Assembly: GCA_031459625.1 (NCBI GenBank)
Contig: JAVKIH010000015.1
Location: 1 to 55,186 of the forward strand
From: Candidatus Geohabitans tengchongensis
Lineage (GTDB): Bacteria > Sysuimicrobiota > Sysuimicrobiia > Sysuimicrobiales > Humicultoraceae
Reading direction: 5' to 3'
DNA length: 55,186 bases
Shown here: positions 9,400 through 38,521 of the stretch, one piece after another
How the letters are laid out: each line of letters opens with the position of its first letter
Numbering within the stretch: position 1 is the first letter of the stretch
Program-made: the position numbers and the translations under genes
Notes under the pieces: model-generated
The model's input: the letters and a program-made list of their open reading frames with translations, nothing else
Database searches by the model: none
Told to the model about the DNA's origin: nothing

Positions 9400-10757
9400 G
9401 GTGCACCGCTCCCCTCAACGGGCCCCCCGCGGTCTCCGAGCCAGGCGCGGATGGCCGCGGCGGCCTCCGCCCGGGCGACGGTGCGCTGCTCGCCGCGCTC
9501 CAGGTGGCGCACCTGCACCGTCCCGGTGCGGACCTCCTCCGGCCCCACCACCACCGCGGCCGGGATGCGCCGCCGGTTGGCGTAGCGGAGCTGGTCGGTC
9601 AGGCTGCGGGGCTCCAGGACGACCTCGCAGCGCAGCCCGCCGGCGCGCAGCGCCTGCGCCAGGCGCAGCGACTCCCCGCGCAGCTCCGGCTGGAAGACCG
9701 TCACCAGGACCTCCACCGTGGTAGGACGCAGGGCTGGCGGGAACATCCCGTGCGCCTGCATCACCTCGAGGATGCGCTCGATGCCGATGGTCGTCCCCGT
9801 GGCCGGGATCTCCCGGCCGGCGAAGAGGCCCACCAGGCGGTCGTACCGCCCGCCGCCGGTGAGGCTGCCGATGCGCGGCCGCTCCACCACGGTCTCGTAG
9901 ATGGGCCCCGTGTAGTACTCCAGCCCGCGCACCATGGAGGGGTCGACGCGCAGCCGTGCCCGGGGCACCCCCGCCTCGTCCAGGGTGGCCAGGATCTCCT
10001 CGAGCTCGGCGACCCCCTCGAGCGCCTCGGCCTCCCTGTCCAGGTGGCGGCGCAGGTCGGCCAGCACGGTGGCGGGGTCGCCCGAGACCTCGAGCAGCGC
10101 GAGGAGGCGCCGGATGGCCTCGGGCGGGACCTGCTGCCGCTGCAGCTCCGCCTCCACGCCCGGCAGCCCGACGCGCTCCAGCTTGTCGATGGCCCGGTAC
10201 AGCCCGCCCAGCTGGGAGGCGGGGACGCCGGCGTAGGCGCCCAGGCCGTTGAGGATCTTGCGGTTGTTCAGCCGCACGACGAAGTGCTCGAAGCCGAGCC
10301 GCCCCAGCACCTCGCAGATCACCTGGAGGATCTCGGCGTCGGCCTGGACGCTGGCCGTCCCCACGATGTCGGCGTCGCACTGGACGAACTCGCGGAAGCG
10401 GCCCCGCTGCGGGCGCTCCGCGCGCCACACCGGCGCGATCTGGTAGCGCCGGAAGGGGCGCGGCAGCTCCTGGTGCATGGCCACCACGCGCGCCAGCGGC
10501 ACCGAGAGGTCGTAGCGCAGCGCCAGGCGCTCCCGCCCCGCCGGGTGCTGGCAGTGGTAGATGAGCTTCTCGGCATCGGGACCGTACTTGCCCATGAGCG
10601 TCTCCCACAGCTCGAGCGCCGGGGTGCCGAGGGGCTCGAAGCCGTAGGCGGCGAAGACCGCCTCCACCTGCTCGATCACGTAGCGGCGGCGGATCATCTC
10701 CTCGGGCAGCAGGTCTCGCATGCCCTTCGGGAGCCGCGGCTCCACCTTCGTCACCAT
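9396..10757 (-). CDS. hisS: Histidine--tRNA ligase
   Basis: PKGMRD, LRYDLSVP, RAERPQRGRFREFVQCDAD, RGLEYYTG, GGGRYD. Confidence 0.95.
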   Translation of the reverse strand: MVTKVEPRLPKGMRDLLPEEMIRRRYVIEQVEAVFAAYGFEPLGTPALELWETLMGKYGPDAEKLIYHCQHPAGRERLALRYDLSVPLARVVAMHQELPRPFRRYQIAPVWRAERPQRGRFREFVQCDADIVGTASVQADAEILQVICEVLGRLGFEHFVVRLNNRKILNGLGAYAGVPASQLGGLYRAIDKLERVGLPGVEAELQRQQVPPEAIRRLLALLEVSGDPATVLADLRRHLDREAEALEGVAELEEILATLDEAGVPRARLRVDPSMVRGLEYYTGPIYETVVERPRIGSLTGGGRYDRLVGLFAGREIPATGTTIGIERILEVMQAHGMFPPALRPTTVEVLVTVFQPELRGESLRLAQALRAGGLRCEVVLEPRSLTDQLRYANRRRIPAAVVVGPEEVRTGTVQVRHLERGEQRTVARAEAAAAIRAWLGDRGGPVEGSGAP

Positions 10758-25121: not shown

Positions 25122-25315
25122 GTCACCGGCTCCTTTGTCTGCATGTGACCGGCTCGCGGGCCCGCTGCCGGGCGCAAAAAAGCGGACGTCGTGGCGGCGA
25201 CCGGCGTCCCTCCGGCGGGGACCGAGGACCCCGCCGGGCGCCGAAGGCCCCACGCGGGTCCGCGCGACCACTCGTCCGGCCGTCCCGGGACATCCCTGGA
25301 CGGCAATCCGGCTGC

Positions 25316-25325
25316 ATTATACCAT
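25316..25325. promoter_or_regulatory. Overlapping divergent -10 elements (secD and DUF72)
   Basis: TGgTATAAT on minus (core 25316-21) overlaps TACCAT on plus (25320-25), which lies 9 nt before the DUF72 ATG. Confidence 0.6.
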
Positions 25326-25334
25326 GGCGGTGAC

Positions 25335-26360
25335 ATGACGCTCTTCCCCGAGGTCGACGGCGCGCCGGCCTCTCCCCTCCGCCTCGGCGACTGCGCGGTG
25401 TACACCGGGACCTGCTCCTGGGCCGATCCCAGCTTCGTGCAGAGCGACTTCTACCCGGAGGCGGTGCGGACCCGGCCGCGCGCCCGGCTGCAGTACTACG
25501 CCTCGGTCTTCCCCACGGTGGAGGTGGACGCCACCTACCACGCGCTGCAGCCGGCGGAGCGGGCGGTGCAGTGGGTGGAGACGGTGCCGGAGCCCTTCCT
25601 CTTCAACATCAAGGCCTTCGCCTGGCTCACCTGGCACGACAGTGACCCGGCGCGGCTGCCACGGGAGATCTTCGTGCTGCTGCCGCGGCCGCTCCAGGTG
25701 GAGAAGCGCCTGGCGCCGAGCCGCCTCCCCGAGGAGATCGTCACCAGCGTGTGGGACTACTTCGCCGCCTTCATCGACGCCCTGCGGTTGCGCGAGCGGC
25801 TGGGCTACGTCCTCTTCCAGTTCCCCAAGGGGTTGGGCTACACGCCGGAGCTCTTCACCTACCTGGACGCCTGGGAGCTGTACCTGCAGAACTGGCCGGT
25901 GGCGATCGAGGTGCGGCACCGCGAGTGGTACCAGGGCAAGGCCCGCGCCATGCTGCTGGGCTACCTGCGCGAGCACGGCTTCGCCCACGTCATCGCCGAC
26001 ATGGCCCCGGTGCGCTACCTCCCCGAGCCGCTGGTCGAGGTGACCGCCGACTGGTCGGTGGTGCGCTTCCACGGGCGCAACCCGGCCCTGGCCGAGAAGG
26101 GGGTCTCCACCCAGCAGGCCTACGACTACCTGTACACGCCCGAGGAGCTCCGCCCCTGGGCGGAGACGGCCGAGCGGCTGGCTGCGGACGTGCGGCGGCT
26201 CTACCTGATGTTCAACAACCACGCGCGGGGCCAGTCCGCCCGCAACGCGCGGGAGCTGCAGCTCCTGCTGCAGGAGCGTGCGGCCGGGGCGCGCCCGCGC
26301 TCGGAGGTCGGCGAGCCCACCCAGCCCGGCCTCACCCCGTCGCTCGGCGATCCCGCCTGA
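25335..26360 (+). CDS. DUF72 (YecE-like) protein
   Basis: GTCSW, TVEVDATYH, LFQFP, AIEVRH, VRFHGRN, YDYLY, FNNH. Confidence 0.9.
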   Translation: MTLFPEVDGAPASPLRLGDCAVYTGTCSWADPSFVQSDFYPEAVRTRPRARLQYYASVFPTVEVDATYHALQPAERAVQWVETVPEPFLFNIKAFAWLTWHDSDPARLPREIFVLLPRPLQVEKRLAPSRLPEEIVTSVWDYFAAFIDALRLRERLGYVLFQFPKGLGYTPELFTYLDAWELYLQNWPVAIEVRHREWYQGKARAMLLGYLREHGFAHVIADMAPVRYLPEPLVEVTADWSVVRFHGRNPALAEKGVSTQQAYDYLYTPEELRPWAETAERLAADVRRLYLMFNNHARGQSARNARELQLLLQERAAGARPRSEVGEPTQPGLTPSLGDPA

Positions 26361-28584
26361 GCGGCGCCCAGACCTCCCGGCGCAGCCGGGCCCGGTCATA
26401 GCCGAGCGGCTCCAGCACCGTCTCCGCCGCCCGGAGCAGCAGGTCGGCGTAGTACTCCACGTCCGGGCTCCAGTCCGTCCCCACCAGCGCCAGCGGCCGC
26501 ACCCGCTCCTCCGGGATCCGGGCGCGACGGTCTACCACGACGTACCGGACCGCCTCGCCGGGGTGGAGGCGGACCCGGCTGCGGGCCAGCGCCCGCGCCG
26601 CCAGGGCCACGGGGTGGTGGCTGCGGTAGGCCTCCGGTGCCTGGGAGAGGGTGGTGGTGAGGGCCAGGGCGGATGCGGGGACCGACCCCTCGCGCAGCTG
26701 CACCAGCGCCTCCGCCAGCACTGCCAGGGCCCGGGGGACGAGCCGGCGCAGCTCCGCCAGGTCGCGGGCCTGGACGAGCACCTGCAGGAGGGCCTCCTGG
26801 GTCTCGACGACCAGCGGGGGGACGTCCGAGCGGCGCACCTCGATCCCGCGCACCTTCGTGGTCCCGTCGGTGAAGACCCCCAGGTACCGGTTGGGCACCC
26901 CGACCCCGGGGTGGGTGCGCGCGGGGAGGAAGGCGATCCAGCGGTAGAGCCCCTCGACGAAGATGGGGAGCCCGGTGGCGCGCTCGACCTCCCGGGCGAG
27001 CGCCGCGTACGCCTCGGGACCGGCCCCGGGACGCTGCAGCCACATCGCGTCCACCAGGGCGTGGAGCAGGCGGAAGCCTTGTGCCTCAGCCACCTCCTTG
27101 GCCCGCAGCAGCATCTCCCGGGCGAAGGCGGTCGTCGCCTCGTGCGCCTCGATCCGCCCGAAGCGGGCGTTGCGGTAGCCGAGGTAACCGAAGCTGCAGA
27201 CCAGGCACCACTTCAGGGCCGTCTGCCGCTGGTCGTACAGCGCCCGCGCGGGACCGGTGGTCTCGGCGCGCCGCCGCTTGTAGTAAGCGCGCCGCGCCAG
27301 CAGCGGCTCCAGCACGGCCGGCACGAGCCCCTGCCGCCGCCGGCAGACCCGGTGCCCGATCTCCGGCACGGGGCGCCCCGCCGCCCCGCAGCAGGCGCAG
27401 TTCACCGTCTCGGGGGAGAGGTTAAAGCGCGCCATCATCGTCGGGTACATCGAGGCGAAGTCCAGCTCGCCCACCCCCTCGAAGACGCCCACGAGCGGCT
27501 GGTAGGCCAGACCGCCCTTGTCGGTGGTGAGCAGCTCGGCGGCGGTCTTGAACGCCTCCGGCTCGCGCTTGTGCCAGGGGACGAGCACGCCCTGCGCCAC
27601 CGCCCGGTCGACCTGCATCGAGGAGATGGCCGTCCCCACCGAGGTCCGGGCCAGAGACTGGACGGGCAGGCGCGCCAGACGGGCGATCTCCAACAGGCCC
27701 CCCAGCTCGGATTCGCTGAACAGGAAGGAGTTCTGCAGGTCGATGTGCCACCGCCCGGCCAGCATCTGTGCGCCGGCGGTGTGTACCGTCTGGCCGTAGG
27801 TGACGTAGGAGCGGGCGCGCCGCGTGCGCACGGCGGCGTGCGGGTCGCGGTTGAGCGCCAGGGGGATGCCGATGGCCCGGCTCAGCCGCCGCAGGCGCGG
27901 CAGCAGGAAGGCGTCCCCCCACTCGGTCAGGAGCAGGTCGGGGTCGTAGCGCTGCAGCATCCGGTTGAGGCTGTGCAGCAGGTCCTCCGGCCGCTCGCCG
28001 CTCACCACCACGTGCTCGCCCGGGACGGCGATCTCCAGCTCCCCTGGACGGCCGTGCCCCGGGTGGACCGGGTCCCCACTCAGGCGGAGGTGCATGGTGA
28101 CCAGCGGCGGCACCGCGTACTCCAGGTCCTCGGGGCTGTCCAGGGGGTGGATCGCCCGCAGGCGGCCGTCGGCCACCTCGACCTCGTAGCGGCCCAGCGG
28201 GAAGAGCCGCGTCTCGTAGAGGTAGAGCTGCGGGAGCCCGATGTCGCAGGAGAAGAGGGTGAGGCCCGGCAGGCGGCCGGCCACCTCCACGGCCCGCGGC
28301 AGGAGGAGCGGGCGGTGGACGGCCACCCGCACCACAGGGAGCTCCGCCCCGGAGAGGAGCTCCTGGCGCCGGGTGGGCTCCAGGTCGGCGGCGATCCCGG
28401 CCCGGGCGAGCGTCGGCCCCAGGTGGGCCAGGCGGGCGCGGGGCCCGGTCACGTAGAAGGCCGGCCGGTAGAGGGTCCGGGCGACGTGCGGGTGGCCCGC
28501 TTCGTCGAGGAACCACAGCACCATCCCCGCGGCGTCAGGGTAGACGTCGAAGAGCCAGCCGCGGAACGCCCGGCGGCCGGTCAC
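26332..28584 (-). CDS. B-family DNA polymerase, PolB2 (Dpo2-like) group
   Basis: Motif A DFASMYP, motif B KWCLVCSFGYLG, variant motif C HALVDAMW, NRYLG, KVRGIEVRRSD; exonuclease motifs degenerate. Confidence 0.88.
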   Translation of the reverse strand: MTGRRAFRGWLFDVYPDAAGMVLWFLDEAGHPHVARTLYRPAFYVTGPRARLAHLGPTLARAGIAADLEPTRRQELLSGAELPVVRVAVHRPLLLPRAVEVAGRLPGLTLFSCDIGLPQLYLYETRLFPLGRYEVEVADGRLRAIHPLDSPEDLEYAVPPLVTMHLRLSGDPVHPGHGRPGELEIAVPGEHVVVSGERPEDLLHSLNRMLQRYDPDLLLTEWGDAFLLPRLRRLSRAIGIPLALNRDPHAAVRTRRARSYVTYGQTVHTAGAQMLAGRWHIDLQNSFLFSESELGGLLEIARLARLPVQSLARTSVGTAISSMQVDRAVAQGVLVPWHKREPEAFKTAAELLTTDKGGLAYQPLVGVFEGVGELDFASMYPTMMARFNLSPETVNCACCGAAGRPVPEIGHRVCRRRQGLVPAVLEPLLARRAYYKRRRAETTGPARALYDQRQTALKWCLVCSFGYLGYRNARFGRIEAHEATTAFAREMLLRAKEVAEAQGFRLLHALVDAMWLQRPGAGPEAYAALAREVERATGLPIFVEGLYRWIAFLPARTHPGVGVPNRYLGVFTDGTTKVRGIEVRRSDVPPLVVETQEALLQVLVQARDLAELRRLVPRALAVLAEALVQLREGSVPASALALTTTLSQAPEAYRSHHPVALAARALARSRVRLHPGEAVRYVVVDRRARIPEERVRPLALVGTDWSPDVEYYADLLLRAAETVLEPLGYDRARLRREVWAPLRRDRRATG

Positions 28585-28590
28585 GCCGTT

Positions 28591-28929
28591 TCACCCGTCC
28601 GCGCCGATGGGCAGGGCCACCTGCTCGCCGGCAGGCGGGCGCAGCGCCTCCGCCTCCTTGTCGTGCGCGGCCAGCAGCTCCGCCAGGTCGGCCAGGCGGC
28701 GCTCGTGGCTCACCACGGCCTTCGCCACCTCGAGGAGCATCGCCAGCAGGATGGTCTCGAAAGGGGAGGCGTGCGACTGGTAGGCGCCGGCGGCGGCGTG
28801 GTGCCGGGCGGCGCTGAAGAGGCGGTCCAGGACCTCCTGGTCTTCCCGCCGGAGGGCCCGGCGGAACCGGCTGAAGGCGGCCAGCTCCTGGTCGACCAGC
28901 TGGGTCATCGTGGCCACGGTGCGTCCCAT
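28591..28929 (-). CDS. PolB2-associated small protein (PPB2/arCOG07300-like)
   Basis: MGRTVAT..FRRALRREDQ..PFETILLAMLLE; lies between the iRadA-like gene and polB2. Confidence 0.8.
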   Translation of the reverse strand: MGRTVATMTQLVDQELAAFSRFRRALRREDQEVLDRLFSAARHHAAAGAYQSHASPFETILLAMLLEVAKAVVSHERRLADLAELLAAHDKEAEALRPPAGEQVALPIGADG

Positions 28930-28950
28930 CGATCCTCCTCCCACCACCGT

Positions 28951-29613
28951 CTACCACCACCGTCGGGCGTGCAGGACCGGGATGGCCGGCTGCCAGAGGG
29001 CTTCCCGCCCGCTCCCCTCCTCACGGATCCGCCATCCCTCCTCCCCCACCGTCACCCGGACTCGCCGCACCGCCCGCTCCTCCAGGCGTCCCAGGAACCA
29101 CTCCCGCCCCGGCGGAGTGGCCAGGTCCGGGCAGGCCGCCACCACCGTCCAGGGGAGGGCCAGCAGGCGGTCCAAGGCGTCCAGCACCCGGCGGAAGACC
29201 CGCACCGCCTCGCTGCGGTGGAGGTTCTCGTCCAGGAGGGCGTCCAGCGGGCCTGAGAGGAACAGGGCGCTGGGACCTCCTGCCGCGGCGATTCTGGGCA
29301 GGTGTTCCTTCAGGAGCGCCTCCAGCTGGTAGGCCGTGAAGGCCCTGGAGACGCGGATCCGCTCCAGGAACCACCGGGAGGAACGGTGGAGGCGGCGGGC
29401 CAGGTGGCCCACCAGGTAGGGGTCGAAGGCGTTGGCGCCGTCCACCACCAGCAGGGTGCGGTCTTCCCCTACCGTCCGGAGCGCCAGGAGGAGGCCCACG
29501 GTCAGACAGGCATCCGGCCCCCTCACGAGGATCAGCCCGCGCGCCGGCGGCGGCAGGAGTGGGGCATCCGGCAGGGCAAGGGTCATGGCTACCTGTCCCG
29601 TGGTGGAGTTCAC
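28951..29613 (-). CDS. Inactivated RecA/RadA-like protein (iRadA)
   Basis: VVDGANAFDPY, IRVSRAFTAYQL; no Walker A; probable leaderless GTG. Confidence 0.8.
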   Translation of the reverse strand: MNSTTGQVAMTLALPDAPLLPPPARGLILVRGPDACLTVGLLLALRTVGEDRTLLVVDGANAFDPYLVGHLARRLHRSSRWFLERIRVSRAFTAYQLEALLKEHLPRIAAAGGPSALFLSGPLDALLDENLHRSEAVRVFRRVLDALDRLLALPWTVVAACPDLATPPGREWFLGRLEERAVRRVRVTVGEEGWRIREEGSGREALWQPAIPVLHARRWW

Positions 29614-29619
29614 CTAGCA

Positions 29620-29647
29620 AGTATACGAACTGATGTTCGTATGTCAA
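29620..29647 (-). promoter_or_regulatory. SOS promoter with Gram-positive-type LexA box
   Basis: TTGACA-N16-TATACT with CGAAC-TGAT-GTTCG (29626-29639) in the spacer. Confidence 0.88.
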
Positions 29648-29664
29648 GTCGGAACGACCCAGGG

Positions 29665-29700
29665 AAAAAAGGCCGGCGCCCCGGCAATTGCCGGGGCGCC
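29665..29700 (-). terminator. Intrinsic terminator after the peptide gene
   Basis: Perfect palindrome GGCGCCCCGGC-AATT-GCCGGGGCGCC followed on minus by GGCC-T6. Confidence 0.75.
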
Positions 29701-29730
29701 TAGATCCGGCTCCAGCCCGGAACGGGAGGG

Positions 29731-29937
29731 CTACTCTACCACCGGGTCAGAGGGTCCCTGACTCCCTGCACCCCCTTCCCGTGGGCCCCCTTGCCCGCCC
29801 CGATCCACGTCGGCACCCCCACGCTCGCCAGCGCGGCCTCCCCGCTCGTCCCGACCCGCCAGCGCGGGACCGGCGGCAACTCCGACCACTATCACCACCA
29901 GCAGCAGGGCTGCCAGGATGATCCAGGCTCGCTTCAT
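29731..29937 (-). CDS. Secreted 68-aa pro-peptide with tandem RGG-ending heptads (putative signalling peptide)
   Basis: MKR + hydrophobic core + ALA cleavage site, then GRDERGG/RAGERGG/ADVDRGG; purine-rich RBS. Confidence 0.7.
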   Translation of the reverse strand: MKRAWIILAALLLVVIVVGVAAGPALAGRDERGGRAGERGGADVDRGGQGGPREGGAGSQGPSDPVVE

Positions 29938-29955
29938 CGTCCCTCTCCCCTCTCC

Positions 29956-30954
29956 TCAGTCAGAGTGCGCCCCACCACTGATGGCGAAGGCGTCCACACC
30001 ATTGCGGCGCTGGTAGAGCTCCCGTGCCAGGTCCTGCTCGCGCTCGCTGAGCGCCAGCCCGGCGGTGTGGTGCAGCCGGATGACCAGGGGCACGAAGTCG
30101 AGCAGGATGGGGTGCTTCCCCAGGCTGAGGGCCAGGTCCACCCCCACGTCGGCGTAGTGCAGGGCCGTCGGCAGGCTCTCGTGCTGGGTGGTCTCGGCAG
30201 CCAGCAGCAGGGCCTGGGCGTGGGTGATCGGGTCGGTGATCTCCTCCGGCGACTCCATGATCGCCAGCGCCGTCGACCGGCCCCCTCGCCAGTTGCCGCG
30301 CAGCGCCTCCAACCGGCCCAGCTCCAGGTCGATGCGGGCGGTGGGTTCGCCGAGCCGCCGCTTGTGCGCCCGCGCCTCCACCAGCGCCTCCTCGCCCTCG
30401 GCGAAGGCCTGGCGGTCCAGGTAGACCCACCCGAGGTTGTGGAGGGCGTCGGCCACGTGGGTGAGAGCGCCGGCTTCGGCGTAGCGGTCCCGGGCCCGGG
30501 CGAAGTGGCGCAGGGCGTCCGAGAACATCCCCAGGTAGCGCTCGGCCAGCCCCAGGTTGAGGAGGGCGTTGCCCGCCTGGCGCGGGTCGCCGATGTCCTC
30601 GGCCAGGAGGAGCGCCTGCCGGCCGGCCTCCCAGGCTTCGCGGATGCGCGAGCCCTGGTAGCAGGCCGCCGTGAGGTTGGCGTAGAGCCGAGCCAGCCAG
30701 CGGCCGCGGTCGAGGTGCTGCAGGGTGGTGAGGGCGATAGCCTTGCGGAAGGCGGTGACCGCACGGTCGGCGTCCCCGAGCCGGAAGGCGCAGACCCCGG
30801 CGTGGTTCCACAACGTGGAGGCTTCGTCCGCGTCGAGGAACTCGGTGAGCTCCGCCGCCTGGACGAACAGCGCGCAGGCCTGCGGGTAGCGGCCCGACTC
30901 CTGGTACCGGCGTGCCGCCTGCTTGAGGAGTTCGACGTGGCCCAGCGCCGACAT
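29956..30954 (-). CDS. Tetratricopeptide repeat protein (putative RRNPP-like receptor)
   Basis: TPR helices LWNHAG, LYANL, ALLNLG, ALHNLG; ATG with GGGAGG. Confidence 0.8.
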   Translation of the reverse strand: MSALGHVELLKQAARRYQESGRYPQACALFVQAAELTEFLDADEASTLWNHAGVCAFRLGDADRAVTAFRKAIALTTLQHLDRGRWLARLYANLTAACYQGSRIREAWEAGRQALLLAEDIGDPRQAGNALLNLGLAERYLGMFSDALRHFARARDRYAEAGALTHVADALHNLGWVYLDRQAFAEGEEALVEARAHKRRLGEPTARIDLELGRLEALRGNWRGGRSTALAIMESPEEITDPITHAQALLLAAETTQHESLPTALHYADVGVDLALSLGKHPILLDFVPLVIRLHHTAGLALSEREQDLARELYQRRNGVDAFAISGGAHSD

Positions 30955-31053
30955 ACCCGGCCCTCCCGGTCGTCTGCGTACCAGGCCCCTATGCCCCGCG
31001 GGGGGACCGGCTAGACCTCCGGCGGCCGCAGGCGGAACCGGCACCGAAGTTCC

Positions 31054-31084
31054 CTGCGGGTGGCCCTCGCTGCGGGTGGCCCTC
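31054..31084. repeat. 15-bp direct repeat, period 16
   Basis: CTGCGGGTGGCCCTC at 31054-68 and 31070-84. Confidence 0.7.
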
Positions 31085-31093
31085 CCCCGGCAG

Positions 31094-31516
31094 TCAATCC
31101 ACCCGCTCGGCCCGCAGGACCACGGGGAGGCGGCGCGTCTCCGCGTACCAGCTGCGCACCGCCTGCAGCCCGTACTTCTCCTCGAACTTCCGGGTGATCG
31201 CCTCGACGGCGGCCGCAGCCTCGCCCGGCGGCTCCCAGCGCACCCGGTAGCGCCGGCCGCCAACGAGGACCATCCCCTCGCCGGCGCGGCGCAGGTTGCG
31301 GTACCAGTCGGTCCCGCGGCCGTGGCGGCGGGCGTAGGCCATCAGGTAGATGCGCAGAGGCCCCGCCAGCTCCGAGGCGAACCACAGCTCGACGGTGTGC
31401 TCGCGTCCCGTGCGCCGGCCGCGGGTGACCAGGCGCAGCGCGCGCTGGCGGCGCAGGAAGCGGTCGTCGGGGAGCGCCGCAGGGTCGGAGCGTCCCCGGG
31501 GCGGGCGCGGGGCCAC
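31094..31516 (-). CDS. Deazaflavin (F420)-dependent nitroreductase-family oxidoreductase
   Basis: LVTRGRRTGREH, DWYRNL, FEEKY, RLPVVL. Confidence 0.75.
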   Translation of the reverse strand: MAPRPPRGRSDPAALPDDRFLRRQRALRLVTRGRRTGREHTVELWFASELAGPLRIYLMAYARRHGRGTDWYRNLRRAGEGMVLVGGRRYRVRWEPPGEAAAAVEAITRKFEEKYGLQAVRSWYAETRRLPVVLRAERVD

Positions 31517-31520
31517 GGCG

Positions 31521-32060
31521 CTAGTCGGCGGGCGGCTTGAAGCGCTCGACGGGGTTGCGACAGGCGCGACAGTAGGCGATGGCGCGGCACAGGGTCGGGC
31601 CGAAGGGCGTCTCCAGCACCACGTCGGTCGAGCCGCAGAAGGGGCAGGTGGCGGGTTCGCGGAAGGTGCGGCGCGGTACGCTGAGACCGTACGTGCGCAG
31701 CTGCTCGCGCCCGCGTGCGCTGAGGCGCGCCAGCGTCCAGGGCTCGTCGAAGGTCAGGTCCACCGTCACCTCCTCCACGCCCGGGAGGGCGGCCACCCGC
31801 TCGCGCACCGTGCGTCGGATCACCTCGATGGCCGGGCAGGCGGAGTAGGTGGGGACGAGCCGGACCATCACCCGGCCGCCGTCCCGCCGCACCTCCCGCA
31901 CGAGGCCCAGGTCGGTGATCGCCAGCGGCAGCTCGGGGTCCTCGATCTGCTCCAGCACCCGCCAGACTTCGGCCTCAGCGGGTGGGGCGTCCACGGGTCT
32001 GGCGTCCACGGGCGTGGCGTCCACAGGCCCGGTCAGCGGGAGGCGGTAGCCGCCGCTCAC
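31521..32060 (-). CDS. paaD: Phenylacetyl-CoA epoxidase subunit PaaD
   Basis: DPELP..DLGLVR, PTYSACPA, CPFCGS, FGPTLCRA..C..C. Confidence 0.92.
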   Translation of the reverse strand: MSGGYRLPLTGPVDATPVDARPVDAPPAEAEVWRVLEQIEDPELPLAITDLGLVREVRRDGGRVMVRLVPTYSACPAIEVIRRTVRERVAALPGVEEVTVDLTFDEPWTLARLSARGREQLRTYGLSVPRRTFREPATCPFCGSTDVVLETPFGPTLCRAIAYCRACRNPVERFKPPAD

Positions 32061-37246: not shown

Positions 37247-38521
37247 TCAGGCCGTGGCCAGCAGCCGGCCCAGCCGGCGGTTCACGGCCTTGAGCGTGGC
37301 CCGGATCACCGCGTCGGGGTGGTCGCGGTCGTAGGGAGCCGTGCCGACCAGGATCTCTTCGGCGCTCGGCGTGGCCAGCGCCAGGGCCACGCTCACCGCG
37401 TCCCCGGCCGGGAAGGCGGTGAAGGCGATCTCCTCGATGGCCAGGCGCCACCCCTCGGGGAGCAGCGCCGCCAGGGCGTTCACCGTGGCCTGCGCCATGG
37501 CACGCAGGGGCCCGTTGCCCACCGGGGCCCCTTCCGCTTCCCCGCGGAAGCGCTCGCCATCGCGCCCGAGCTCCACGGCGGCGGCGGCGCGGGCGGTTTC
37601 GACCGTGAGGTGCACGCCCAGCAGCCGCAGCCGCGTCACCTCCACCGGCGCGGGGGCTTCGGCCAGCCGCATCGCCTCCATCTCCCGGGCGTGCAGGATC
37701 CGGCGGTCGAGCTGCTTGGCGGCAGTCGAGGCCCGGCTGGCCAGCGTGATCAGGTCGTCGGCGGTGGCCGGCGGGTGGACCTCGGCCCGCTCGCCGGCCC
37801 GCCGGCCGCCGGCGAGGCCCACCGAGGCGGTGAGCCCGCGCACGCCGGCGACCTCGACGGCGGCGATGGCCTCGACCAGGCGCTCCGCCAGCGACTCGGC
37901 GGACTCCAGCCGGCGCGTGGTGACGATGGCGAACTCATCCCCGCCGTAGCGGGTCACGAGATCGGTGGCCGGGTCGGTCAGGCGGCGCAGCCGGTCGGCC
38001 ACCGCCACGATGCAGCGGTCGCCGACGACGTGCCCGTGCCGCTTGTTCACCAGGCGGAAGCCGTCCAGGTCGATGAAGCAGACGACGATCTCCTGCCCGG
38101 CCCGCAGCAGGTCGGCGGCGCGCTGCCGCAGCGTCCCCGGCCAGGGCAGGTCGGTGAGCGGGTCGGTGAGCTTGCCGAGTTCCTGCAGGACGTCGACGCG
38201 GGCGATGATGCCGACGAGCCGCCCGTCCTCCACGACCGGGAGGCGGCCCACCTGGCGTTCCTCCATGATCCGGTAGGCCGCGGTGACCGGCGCGTCGGGG
38301 CTCACCGTGGCCACGTCGGTGGTCATGATGTCCCCCACCAGGCGGTAGAGCGCCTGGCCCAGGAGGTCCCGCGGCGTGACGACCCCCACGACGGCGTCCC
38401 CCTCCACCACGGGCAGGCCCCCCACGCGGTGGCGCAGGATCGCCTGGATGGCGGCGGCCACGCTGGCGTCGGGGCGCAGCGTGATCACCTCACGCCGCAT
38501 GAGGTCGCGGACGGTCTTCAC
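37247..38521 (-). CDS. CBS-pair + GGDEF diguanylate cyclase with extra C-terminal domain
   Basis: Two CBS repeats; DPLTDL, FIDLDGFRLVNKRHGHVVGD, RYGGDEF. Confidence 0.88.
   Translation of the reverse strand: MKTVRDLMRREVITLRPDASVAAAIQAILRHRVGGLPVVEGDAVVGVVTPRDLLGQALYRLVGDIMTTDVATVSPDAPVTAAYRIMEERQVGRLPVVEDGRLVGIIARVDVLQELGKLTDPLTDLPWPGTLRQRAADLLRAGQEIVVCFIDLDGFRLVNKRHGHVVGDRCIVAVADRLRRLTDPATDLVTRYGGDEFAIVTTRRLESAESLAERLVEAIAAVEVAGVRGLTASVGLAGGRRAGERAEVHPPATADDLITLASRASTAAKQLDRRILHAREMEAMRLAEAPAPVEVTRLRLLGVHLTVETARAAAAVELGRDGERFRGEAEGAPVGNGPLRAMAQATVNALAALLPEGWRLAIEEIAFTAFPAGDAVSVALALATPSAEEILVGTAPYDRDHPDAVIRATLKAVNRRLGRLLATA

Follow-up and report, generated by a model that had tools for sequence, protein, structure and literature searches.

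Organization of the locus

The window analysed here is a stretch of 55,186 nucleotides (nt) from Candidatus Geohabitans tengchongensis (assembly GCA_031459625.1, contig JAVKIH010000015.1), which like its relatives belongs to the CSP1-3/Sysuimicrobiota, outside the Bacillota. It carries a gene for a tetratricopeptide repeat (TPR) protein followed by a small open reading frame (ORF) with a Sec-type signal peptide. The original prediction, made from the letters of the sequence, described the two as a candidate RRNPP-type receptor and propeptide cassette that may gate damage-induced mutagenesis through an adjacent iRadA-PPB2-PolB2 operon, or may have another target. We found all the parts that it listed, on the minus strand: the 332-amino-acid (aa) TPR ORF, the 68-aa ORF 18 nt further on, a terminator, a LexA-box promoter and the three genes. 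The features of the cassette itself are as follows.

29956 to 30954, minus strand: candidate TPR receptor, 332 aa, 18 helices (ORF, Pfam and AlphaFold2 (AF2) model), with groove-type residues Asn93, Asn133, Asn173 and Trp176
29731 to 29937, minus strand: predicted Sec propeptide, 68 aa, likely cleaved after Ala27 (PALA) (ORF, signal-peptide heuristic and comparison)
29734 to 29757, minus strand: coding for GPSDPVVE, the C-terminal motif conserved in the family (comparison), putatively the mature signal

A predicted propeptide gene accompanies the stand-alone receptor gene

We looked for relatives of the pair in 94 genomes, the same for the class and phylum searches, which include the genome of the window (G000) and the unpublished G008 and G018, the sequences of the latter two supporting no conclusion here. 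Stand-alone full-length orthologues of the receptor (48-59% identity) are present in five of them (G000, G024, G025, G031 and G061). Four further genomes (G005, G007, G016 and G023) encode fusions with a helix-turn-helix (HTH) domain between two TPR regions, and one more match ends at a contig end. In addition, a metagenome contig, L050, carries a receptor copy 98% identical to that of the window, and a protein collection gave ten receptor clusters, most of them without readable context. Before counting, we excluded as generic TPRs the distant matches L051, L052 and L057-L059, in which 26-38% identity is confined to short segments.

In all six stand-alone orthologues with readable flanks, which represent about four lineages and three peptide types, an ORF of 67-75 aa with a signal peptide starts between -4 and +18 nt from the receptor stop codon. 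The expectation that homologues would keep such a downstream ORF was thus borne out. An AxA-type cleavage site is retained in all six peptides according to our heuristic. By the same heuristic, 4 of 1542 long ORFs in the genome of the window are followed by such an ORF, namely the window receptor gene and three others at distances of 93-398 nt. Behind the HTH-fused forms we detected no signal-peptide ORF in the three cases tested, the fused form of G023 and a truncated form in G019 having been left out of this small-ORF test. A profile of the peptides gave strong matches in the five receptor genomes alone, as expected by construction, and weak ones (E>=1.5e-4) in eight others.

Neither viral contigs nor phage records contained a match to the receptor, and so they gave no hint of a mobile origin; a single-sequence scan of a genome-contig collection gave no match either. 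The DUF2255/nitroreductase-like gene upstream of the receptor was considered as a conserved neighbour and discarded: in the relatives it lies on other contigs or was not found. In the RNA run X1, one contig of 8.3 kb spans the whole 3.2-kb stretch; since contigs of this library reach 97 kb, it may derive from DNA and has no bearing on expression.

As a separate observation, the fusions are TPR-HTH_3-TPR proteins of 630-700 aa, encoded at L036:5906-7810 (G005) and L038:8079-10190 (G016), and also in G007 and G023.

The candidate receptor is modelled as an HTH-less TPR superhelix with a Rap-like groove asparagine

The receptor ORF, read from 30954 to 29956, includes the helices ALLNLG and ALHNLG. 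It matches the Pfam family TPR_12 (E 2.7e-16), which was also found in all 13 stand-alone receptors, and generic TPR families were the only ones matched. No Pfam HTH family matched the 332-aa protein, and its AF2 model (pLDDT 92) is an 18-helix, all-hairpin superhelix without a separate HTH domain, in agreement with what had been predicted. Searches of the ESM Atlas returned generic TPR clusters and nothing more specific. The 5' region of the gene folds no better than shuffled sequences (z +1.45).

We compared this model with peptide-bound Rap structures (VIA-align) and observed a common superhelix over 303-310 residues, with Z 24.4-25.0 and a root-mean-square deviation (rmsd) of 4.7-5.0; judged from the aligned ranges alone, residue 1 of the model falls on Rap residues 41-46. 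NprR aligns at Z 21.9 over its residues 106-418, so that the alignment starts at residue 106, and the TPR domain of AimR at Z 21.5 from residue 108. By sequence, a profile of the receptors reached RapF with E 2e-4, the AimR of phi3T gave no match (E 0.88), and no RRNPP-specific NCBIfam model matched the window receptor. With hhalign, the 13 receptors aligned to four plasmid Raps over 86 columns (probability 87.9, E 3.3e-6).

In the latter alignment Asn133 falls on the invariant Rap Asn219, which sits 33 residues after an invariant Asp186, the spacing of Asp192 and Asn225 in RapJ. The accessible text of PMC3601965 describes RapJ Asn225 as contacting the peptide backbone and as conserved across all B. 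subtilis Raps. Asn133, Asn173 and Trp176 are invariant in the 13 stand-alone receptors, and all three are replaced in both peptide-less fused forms tested, which are more diverged overall. This pattern, with the groove asparagines lost in fusions that have no peptide gene, is from comparison of the sequences the strongest internal hint that the groove and the peptide may belong together.

Other Rap features have no counterpart. The position equivalent to Rap Asp192, extrapolated three residues past the aligned block, is Gln100 (Glu in seven, Gln in five and His in one of the 13 receptors), and the C-terminal motif GPSDPVVE has no basic residue with which an Asp of the Asp192 type could pair. 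The Rap output bundle's initial two helices are absent from the model, and the intact N-terminal three-helix bundle (residues 1-70, with catalytic Gln47) is not present. Because of the Gln at the Asp192 position and the missing helices, the receptor is not a Rap phosphatase.

The C-terminal motif is the conserved part of the propeptide

The N-terminus of the small ORF shows, by eye and by the heuristic, a basic N-region, a hydrophobic core and the cleavage motif PALA. The peptides end in QGPSDPVVE (window and L050), NGPADPIIGDLP, DGPARPHVEW[ED] and DGPADPRVDFD, which gives the consensus GP[SA][DR]Px[VI]. In five of five pairs of peptide groups, the best ungapped 7-mer is this C-terminal GPxxP motif, and for four pairs its score was reached by only 3, 15, 9 and 1 of 2000 shuffles. 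Across the peptide families overall identity is 23-34% and the C-terminal motif alone survives. The conserved part of the peptide is thus probably this motif, which on comparative grounds is the best candidate for the mature signal.

The original prediction had pointed instead to heptads and to co-varying repeats in the homologues; the heptads are of the type xxx[ED]RGG/REGG and are present in four copies at a spacing of about seven residues. The heptads could be tandem pheromone copies freed by several cuts, in the manner of AloP13, given as SHGRGG in the accessible part of PMC7425212, or of multi-copy AimP; propeptides with repeated pheromones are described in PMC9765709, and the RGG endings do persist in L050. 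However, RGG heptads occur in two of the six peptides, which come from two near-identical strains, and none of the four distant peptides has such a repeat, though the groove residues of the receptors are unchanged. The window and L050 have receptors that share 98% identity and mature peptides that differ at 8 of 39 positions: the heptads drift and the nonapeptide QGPSDPVVE is identical. We therefore consider heptad signals improbable.

Two other ideas were dropped. A ribosomally synthesized and post-translationally modified peptide was rejected (the best NCBIfam match, HaaT, scored 31 bits for a cut-off of 1125, and no modifying enzyme was seen beside any cassette). An apparent co-variation of receptor and peptide at position 209, which is Gln/Arg in the two cassettes with an Arg motif and Asp in the other receptors of known context, was set aside because both Arg-motif cassettes belong to one genus and the charges are not complementary.

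In G024 a second ORF with a signal peptide follows the first peptide gene (L055:3751-3997); it encodes 81 aa with two Cys, ends in ADPGQGYNPPGNGTSK and could be a second signal.

The polymerase operon is probably independent of the cassette

Between the cassette and the polymerase, and upstream of the receptor gene, the following features were found.

29665 to 29700, minus strand: intrinsic-terminator-like hairpin and T6 run ending the cassette, 11 G-C pairs; stem kept and loop different in L050
29620 to 29647, minus strand: sigma70-type promoter of the polymerase operon, TTGACA-16-TATACT, outside the cassette
29626 to 29639, no strand: LexA-type box CGAAC-N4-GTTCG between -35 and -10, filling the promoter spacer
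28951 to 29586, minus strand: iRadA-like gene, with a likely start at the ATG at 29586 and a possible one at the GTG at 29613; name from gene order; neighbour, outside the cassette
28591 to 28947, minus strand: PPB2-like small gene; name from gene order; neighbour
26332 to 28584, minus strand: family-B DNA polymerase gene, PolB2-like (Pfam/NCBIfam); neighbour
31051 to 31082, no strand: 16-nt G+C-rich tandem repeat located upstream of the receptor gene, present twice here and about six times in L050 (5808-5901)

The hairpin lies at 29700-29675 and is followed by the T6 run (folding z -2.43 for an 81-nt segment). The promoter, at 29647-29620, scores 11/12, where 50 shuffled sequences averaged 0.0. 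As strict copies of CGAAC-N4-GTTCG occur 8 times in the genome for 1.6 expected, the box is credible as a LexA site. Two LexA-like genes are present in the genome of the window (C23:85902-86243 and C1:69442-69780); upstream of one we found a match to the pattern, and upstream of the other looser box-like sites by eye. Of the operon named in the original prediction, the last gene encodes a family-B, PolB2-like polymerase, whose best NCBIfam match (NF004416, 415 bits) is below the cut-off of 516. The two other genes, for which no relevant Pfam or NCBIfam match was found, owe their names to gene order and conservation. The accessible text of PMC11791011 reports iRadA-PPB2-PolB2 as the sole order for bacteria, with lexA enriched nearby.

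The original prediction went further and raised the possibility that the cassette gates the operon. It would do so jointly with LexA, as AimR and LexA act at aimX of phage phi106. Co-oriented adjacency is retained in L050 and in bridging contigs of the runs X5 and X7, that is to say in close strains alone. Precedents for such coupling exist: the accessible part of 10.1101/2021.09.20.460909 describes AimR activation and LexA repression at aimX, downstream of the peptide gene, with a conserved box, and that of PMC7425212 describes Alo systems with downstream targets. These precedents, however, act through an HTH domain, which the window receptor lacks. The terminator lies between cassette and promoter, the promoter is wholly downstream of it, and the spacing between the two shifts by about 69 nt in L050.

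The two modules are also distributed differently: PolB2-like genes are present in 47 of the 94 genomes and the stand-alone receptor in 5. In all four other genomes having both, cassette and polymerase operon are on different contigs with other neighbours; since the cassette contig of G024 ends 299 nt past the peptide gene, the test for this genome uses the iRadA side, where antitoxin and ATPase genes are found. We then considered the DNA upstream of 20 of the 46 polB2 relatives. In 19 of these loci all upstream operon members are visible, and one ends at a contig end, leaving 19 usable regions of 1.4-3 kb each. A LexA-type box precedes iRadA in 18 of the 19, and the receptor gene is in none of them within that distance; the LexA promoter is a module complete in itself. 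The upstream neighbours there encode PAS and HD proteins, uracil-DNA glycosylase/RibD, a thiolase, an enoyl-CoA hydratase, a PilT-type ATPase and others. Conversely, in the four distant cassettes no LexA box was detected in the stretch of up to 1 kb behind the peptide gene, of which one cassette offers 299 nt. Taken together, the polB2 adjacency is likely a local rearrangement in one species-level lineage, with an operon independent of the cassette, and a joint gating of mutagenesis by cassette and LexA is highly doubtful. The same low odds apply to the narrower proposal that the window lineage alone rewired the pair to SOS mutagenesis. Of the prediction, then, the pairing of receptor and propeptide is supported and the SOS gating is not; on the comparative side, the lack of a conserved adjacency is what the prediction itself had named as refuting the coupling.

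Two side observations concern the polymerase. A DUF72 gene (window 25191-26360, plus strand) converges on polB2 and adjoins it also in G012 (L093); DUF72 is mentioned three times in the accessible text of PMC11791011. In several PolB2 homologues (e.g. G017:C8, G013:C12, G065:C81 and G032:C34) a long segment is inserted in frame around residue 464-466, giving open frames of 940-1280 aa, which is suggestive of inteins.

Relatives of the cassette lie in a cyclic di-GMP context

A cyclic di-GMP (c-di-GMP)-I riboswitch was detected upstream of the receptor gene or of the gene preceding it in all five relatives scanned (three stand-alone, one fused and one truncated), and additional copies follow the peptide gene in G031 and G025. 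Neighbours in the relatives include a Cache-GAF-HD protein, and the fusion of G005 lies behind a c-di-GMP riboswitch amid genes for REC-HD, histidine kinase and REC-MshEN-ATPase proteins. Three cassettes of the f2 type are followed by a gene for a 146-165-aa protein that matches no Pfam family and is similar to the C-terminal domain of a CBS-GGDEF protein encoded elsewhere in the window (29%, E 2e-8).

This context also suits an explanation without any ligand, in which the genes of a generic TPR adaptor and of a small secreted protein would share no more than a transcript controlled by c-di-GMP. Other small secreted proteins do follow riboswitches in the same loci, and the closest sequence relatives of the receptor are generic TPRs. 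Nevertheless, mere co-transcription would leave unexplained the perfect co-occurrence of the two genes, their overlapping or tight spacing and the loss of the groove asparagines in exactly the peptide-less forms tested. Moreover, the other 89 of the 94 genomes gave no strong orphan peptide match, with about 65 candidates scored in each. We regard such an unrelated pair as very improbable.

Several observations were made in passing. The domain of about 120 residues shared by these proteins gave no Pfam or PDB sequence match and may resemble the LeuA allosteric domain; it occurs stand-alone behind f2 cassettes (L056:1163-1603), as the CBS-GGDEF C-terminus (window 37247-38521) and in another G000 protein (C28:9961-10275). 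Some c-di-GMP-I-GGC riboswitches have long insertions (140-165 nt for an 80-nt model; L033:8601-9026 and 10484-10623, L034:8700-8856 and 10262-10426), and in G031 two such riboswitches stand in tandem ahead of a gene for a 131-aa secreted protein without Pfam match. In the genome of the window a regular expression found three c-di-GMP-I-like motifs (C1:250144, C30:1913 and C45:88805), which by eye precede prepilin-like genes, an ABC binding protein gene and a sigma-B/F-like factor gene.

A likely Rap-Phr-like pair in a probably diderm host

Our favoured reading is that receptor and propeptide work like Rap-Phr, with the polB2 operon next door likely independent, and we give it a probability of about 0.6. 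From gene order and comparison, it is likely an RRNPP-like pair in the Sysuimicrobiota, with predicted binding of peptide to receptor. The propeptide would be exported via Sec and cleaved after Ala27, the mature chain would be trimmed in the periplasm, and a fragment bearing GPSDPVVE would be re-imported. This fragment would then bind the TPR groove of the receptor and alter its hold on a partner protein, so that the output would be a protein contact. The genome of the window encodes Omp85/BamA and LpxC, so the host likely has an outer membrane with lipopolysaccharide, and the loop may for that reason reflect how much peptide is in the periplasm or very close to the cell, and not bulk cell density. 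Uptake is plausible given the 21 matches to SBP_bac_5, family-5 ABC peptide-binding-type proteins. As for the output, the gene context of the relatives makes a c-di-GMP surface/lifestyle network our best guess.

Various observations weigh against this reading. The riboswitch was not found at the window copy (Rfam, 28900-31600; five chance-level matches), so a c-di-GMP output is weakly indicated for this genome. In fold, Rap is tied with LGN (Z 25.0-25.2, rmsd 6.5-7.3) and TONSOKU (Z 25.8 over 278 residues), not above them, and Foldseek ranks LGN first and Rap 29th; the proposed check against Rap, NprR and AimR thus gave a Rap-like superhelix without singling Rap out. By sequence, the closest proteins are LGN, kinesin light chain and the TPRs of STAND/CHAT proteins, ahead of RapF, which the profile ranked below LGN and kinesin light chain. 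RNPP_C or any other RRNPP-specific Pfam model is absent from the 13 receptors (23 Pfam families matched, E<=0.1). Asparagines in helix A are frequent in peptide-binding TPRs generally. Flanks are readable for the six receptors alone, the others coming from a protein collection without context. The signal-peptide heuristic was written after the peptides had been seen, though the gap to background is still large. For the window and G031 peptides by themselves the motif match lacks significance, its score being reached by 509 of 2000 shuffles. Lastly, the mature region of the f2 peptides is 68-71% identical between two genera, for 52-53% between their receptors, which exceeds the need of a signal of 7-9 residues.

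The last point implies that the ancestral ligand may be longer. The whole mature chain of about 40 residues could be the ligand and occupy the TPR groove lengthwise in the manner of LGN ligands, or binding of the precursor could take place in the cytoplasm before export, as by a chaperone or self-timer; the two genes would then be a functional pair and not a quorum-sensing one. The tie with LGN-peptide complexes as best fold match is consistent with this, and Omp85 and LpxC would make release into the medium harder. Against a long ligand, the C-terminal motif alone is kept across families, the window lineage swapped the rest for RGG repeats of low complexity, which vary from one close strain to another, and the AxA-type cleavage site is kept in every peptide. 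We consider a long ligand unlikely, and prefer the Rap-Phr-like reading.

A broader scenario, of fairly low probability, is that a lipopolysaccharide-bearing phylum has an intracellular peptide-signalling family to itself: an HTH-less TPR receptor, possibly arisen from a generic TPR apart from the RRNPP proteins of Bacillota, would read a periplasm-recycled GPxxPxV peptide and be tied to c-di-GMP control, and its TPR-HTH-TPR derivatives would be blind to the peptide.

In the literature consulted, RRNPP signalling is described only from Bacillota and the mobile elements of these bacteria, and the family is treated as Bacillota-bound in PMC9765709 and 10.1101/2023.09.19.558401. A full-text literature search for RRNPP with Armatimonad found nothing, a search for RRNPP outside the Firmicutes gave no report of such a pair among the matches listed, and the word quorum does not occur in the accessible part of PMC11604079, on Sysuimicrobiota (CSP1-3) genomes. 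If the reading is right, peptide signalling by receptor and propeptide would reach across an outer membrane, in a phylum that is uncultured, widespread and likely diderm, and the peptide and groove residues named here can be tested in vitro without culture. Population control of mutagenesis would be the more striking claim, and it is not supported.

Comparison with known systems

The accessible text of PMC10075063 defines a genomic signature of RRNPP systems: a propeptide of 10-100 aa (search range) with a Sec signal, a receptor of 250-500 aa with TPRs and genes -60 to 400 bp apart. All five points used by RRNPP_detector are found here, with a propeptide of 68 aa (67-75 in the relatives), a Sec-type N-terminus by heuristic, a 332-aa TPR receptor and a spacing of -4 to +18 nt. 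The window propeptide is, however, longer than the 21-50 aa that the same source gives for validated systems. We did not file the pair as an RRNPP member, since the signs of common descent with the Bacillota receptors are mixed (Rap tied with LGN and TONSOKU in fold, the RapF match and an hhalign probability of 87.9% over 86 columns) and it lies beyond the family models and the host range of Bacillota and their mobile elements.

The iRadA-PPB2-PolB2 operon of the window has the same three co-oriented genes in the same order as its bacterial counterparts and is an ordinary member of that group, in which upstream neighbours are highly variable.

AimR-AimP-AimX and the AloR-AloP-Spo0E-like systems of Paenibacillus likewise have the receptor first, the peptide next and a further unit behind it, and in phi106 there is also a LexA box. 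Nevertheless AimR and AloR regulate transcription (every AloR has an HTH), and what follows downstream is conserved among them, whereas the window receptor is HTH-less and its downstream unit is not conserved. NprR-NprX has a similar TPR domain, but the window receptor lacks the N-terminal HTH of NprR, and in those of its relatives here that do bear an HTH, this domain is fused between two TPR regions and no peptide gene accompanies them. LGN/Pins and TONSOKU, which bind extended peptides, are top or tied matches in fold and sequence; they are eukaryotic and have no secreted-propeptide gene, and the rmsd of LGN is worse than that of Rap.

Rap-Phr of Bacillus (RapJ-PhrC, RapF-PhrF and the Raps of pLS20 and phi3T) shows the same organization as the window pair, a gene for an HTH-less TPR protein closely followed by a gene for a Sec-type propeptide with a conserved C-terminus. 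The two share the superhelix, and Asn133 falls on the peptide-binding asparagine of Rap; Asp192 and the first two output-bundle helices of Rap, in contrast, have no counterpart in the window receptor.

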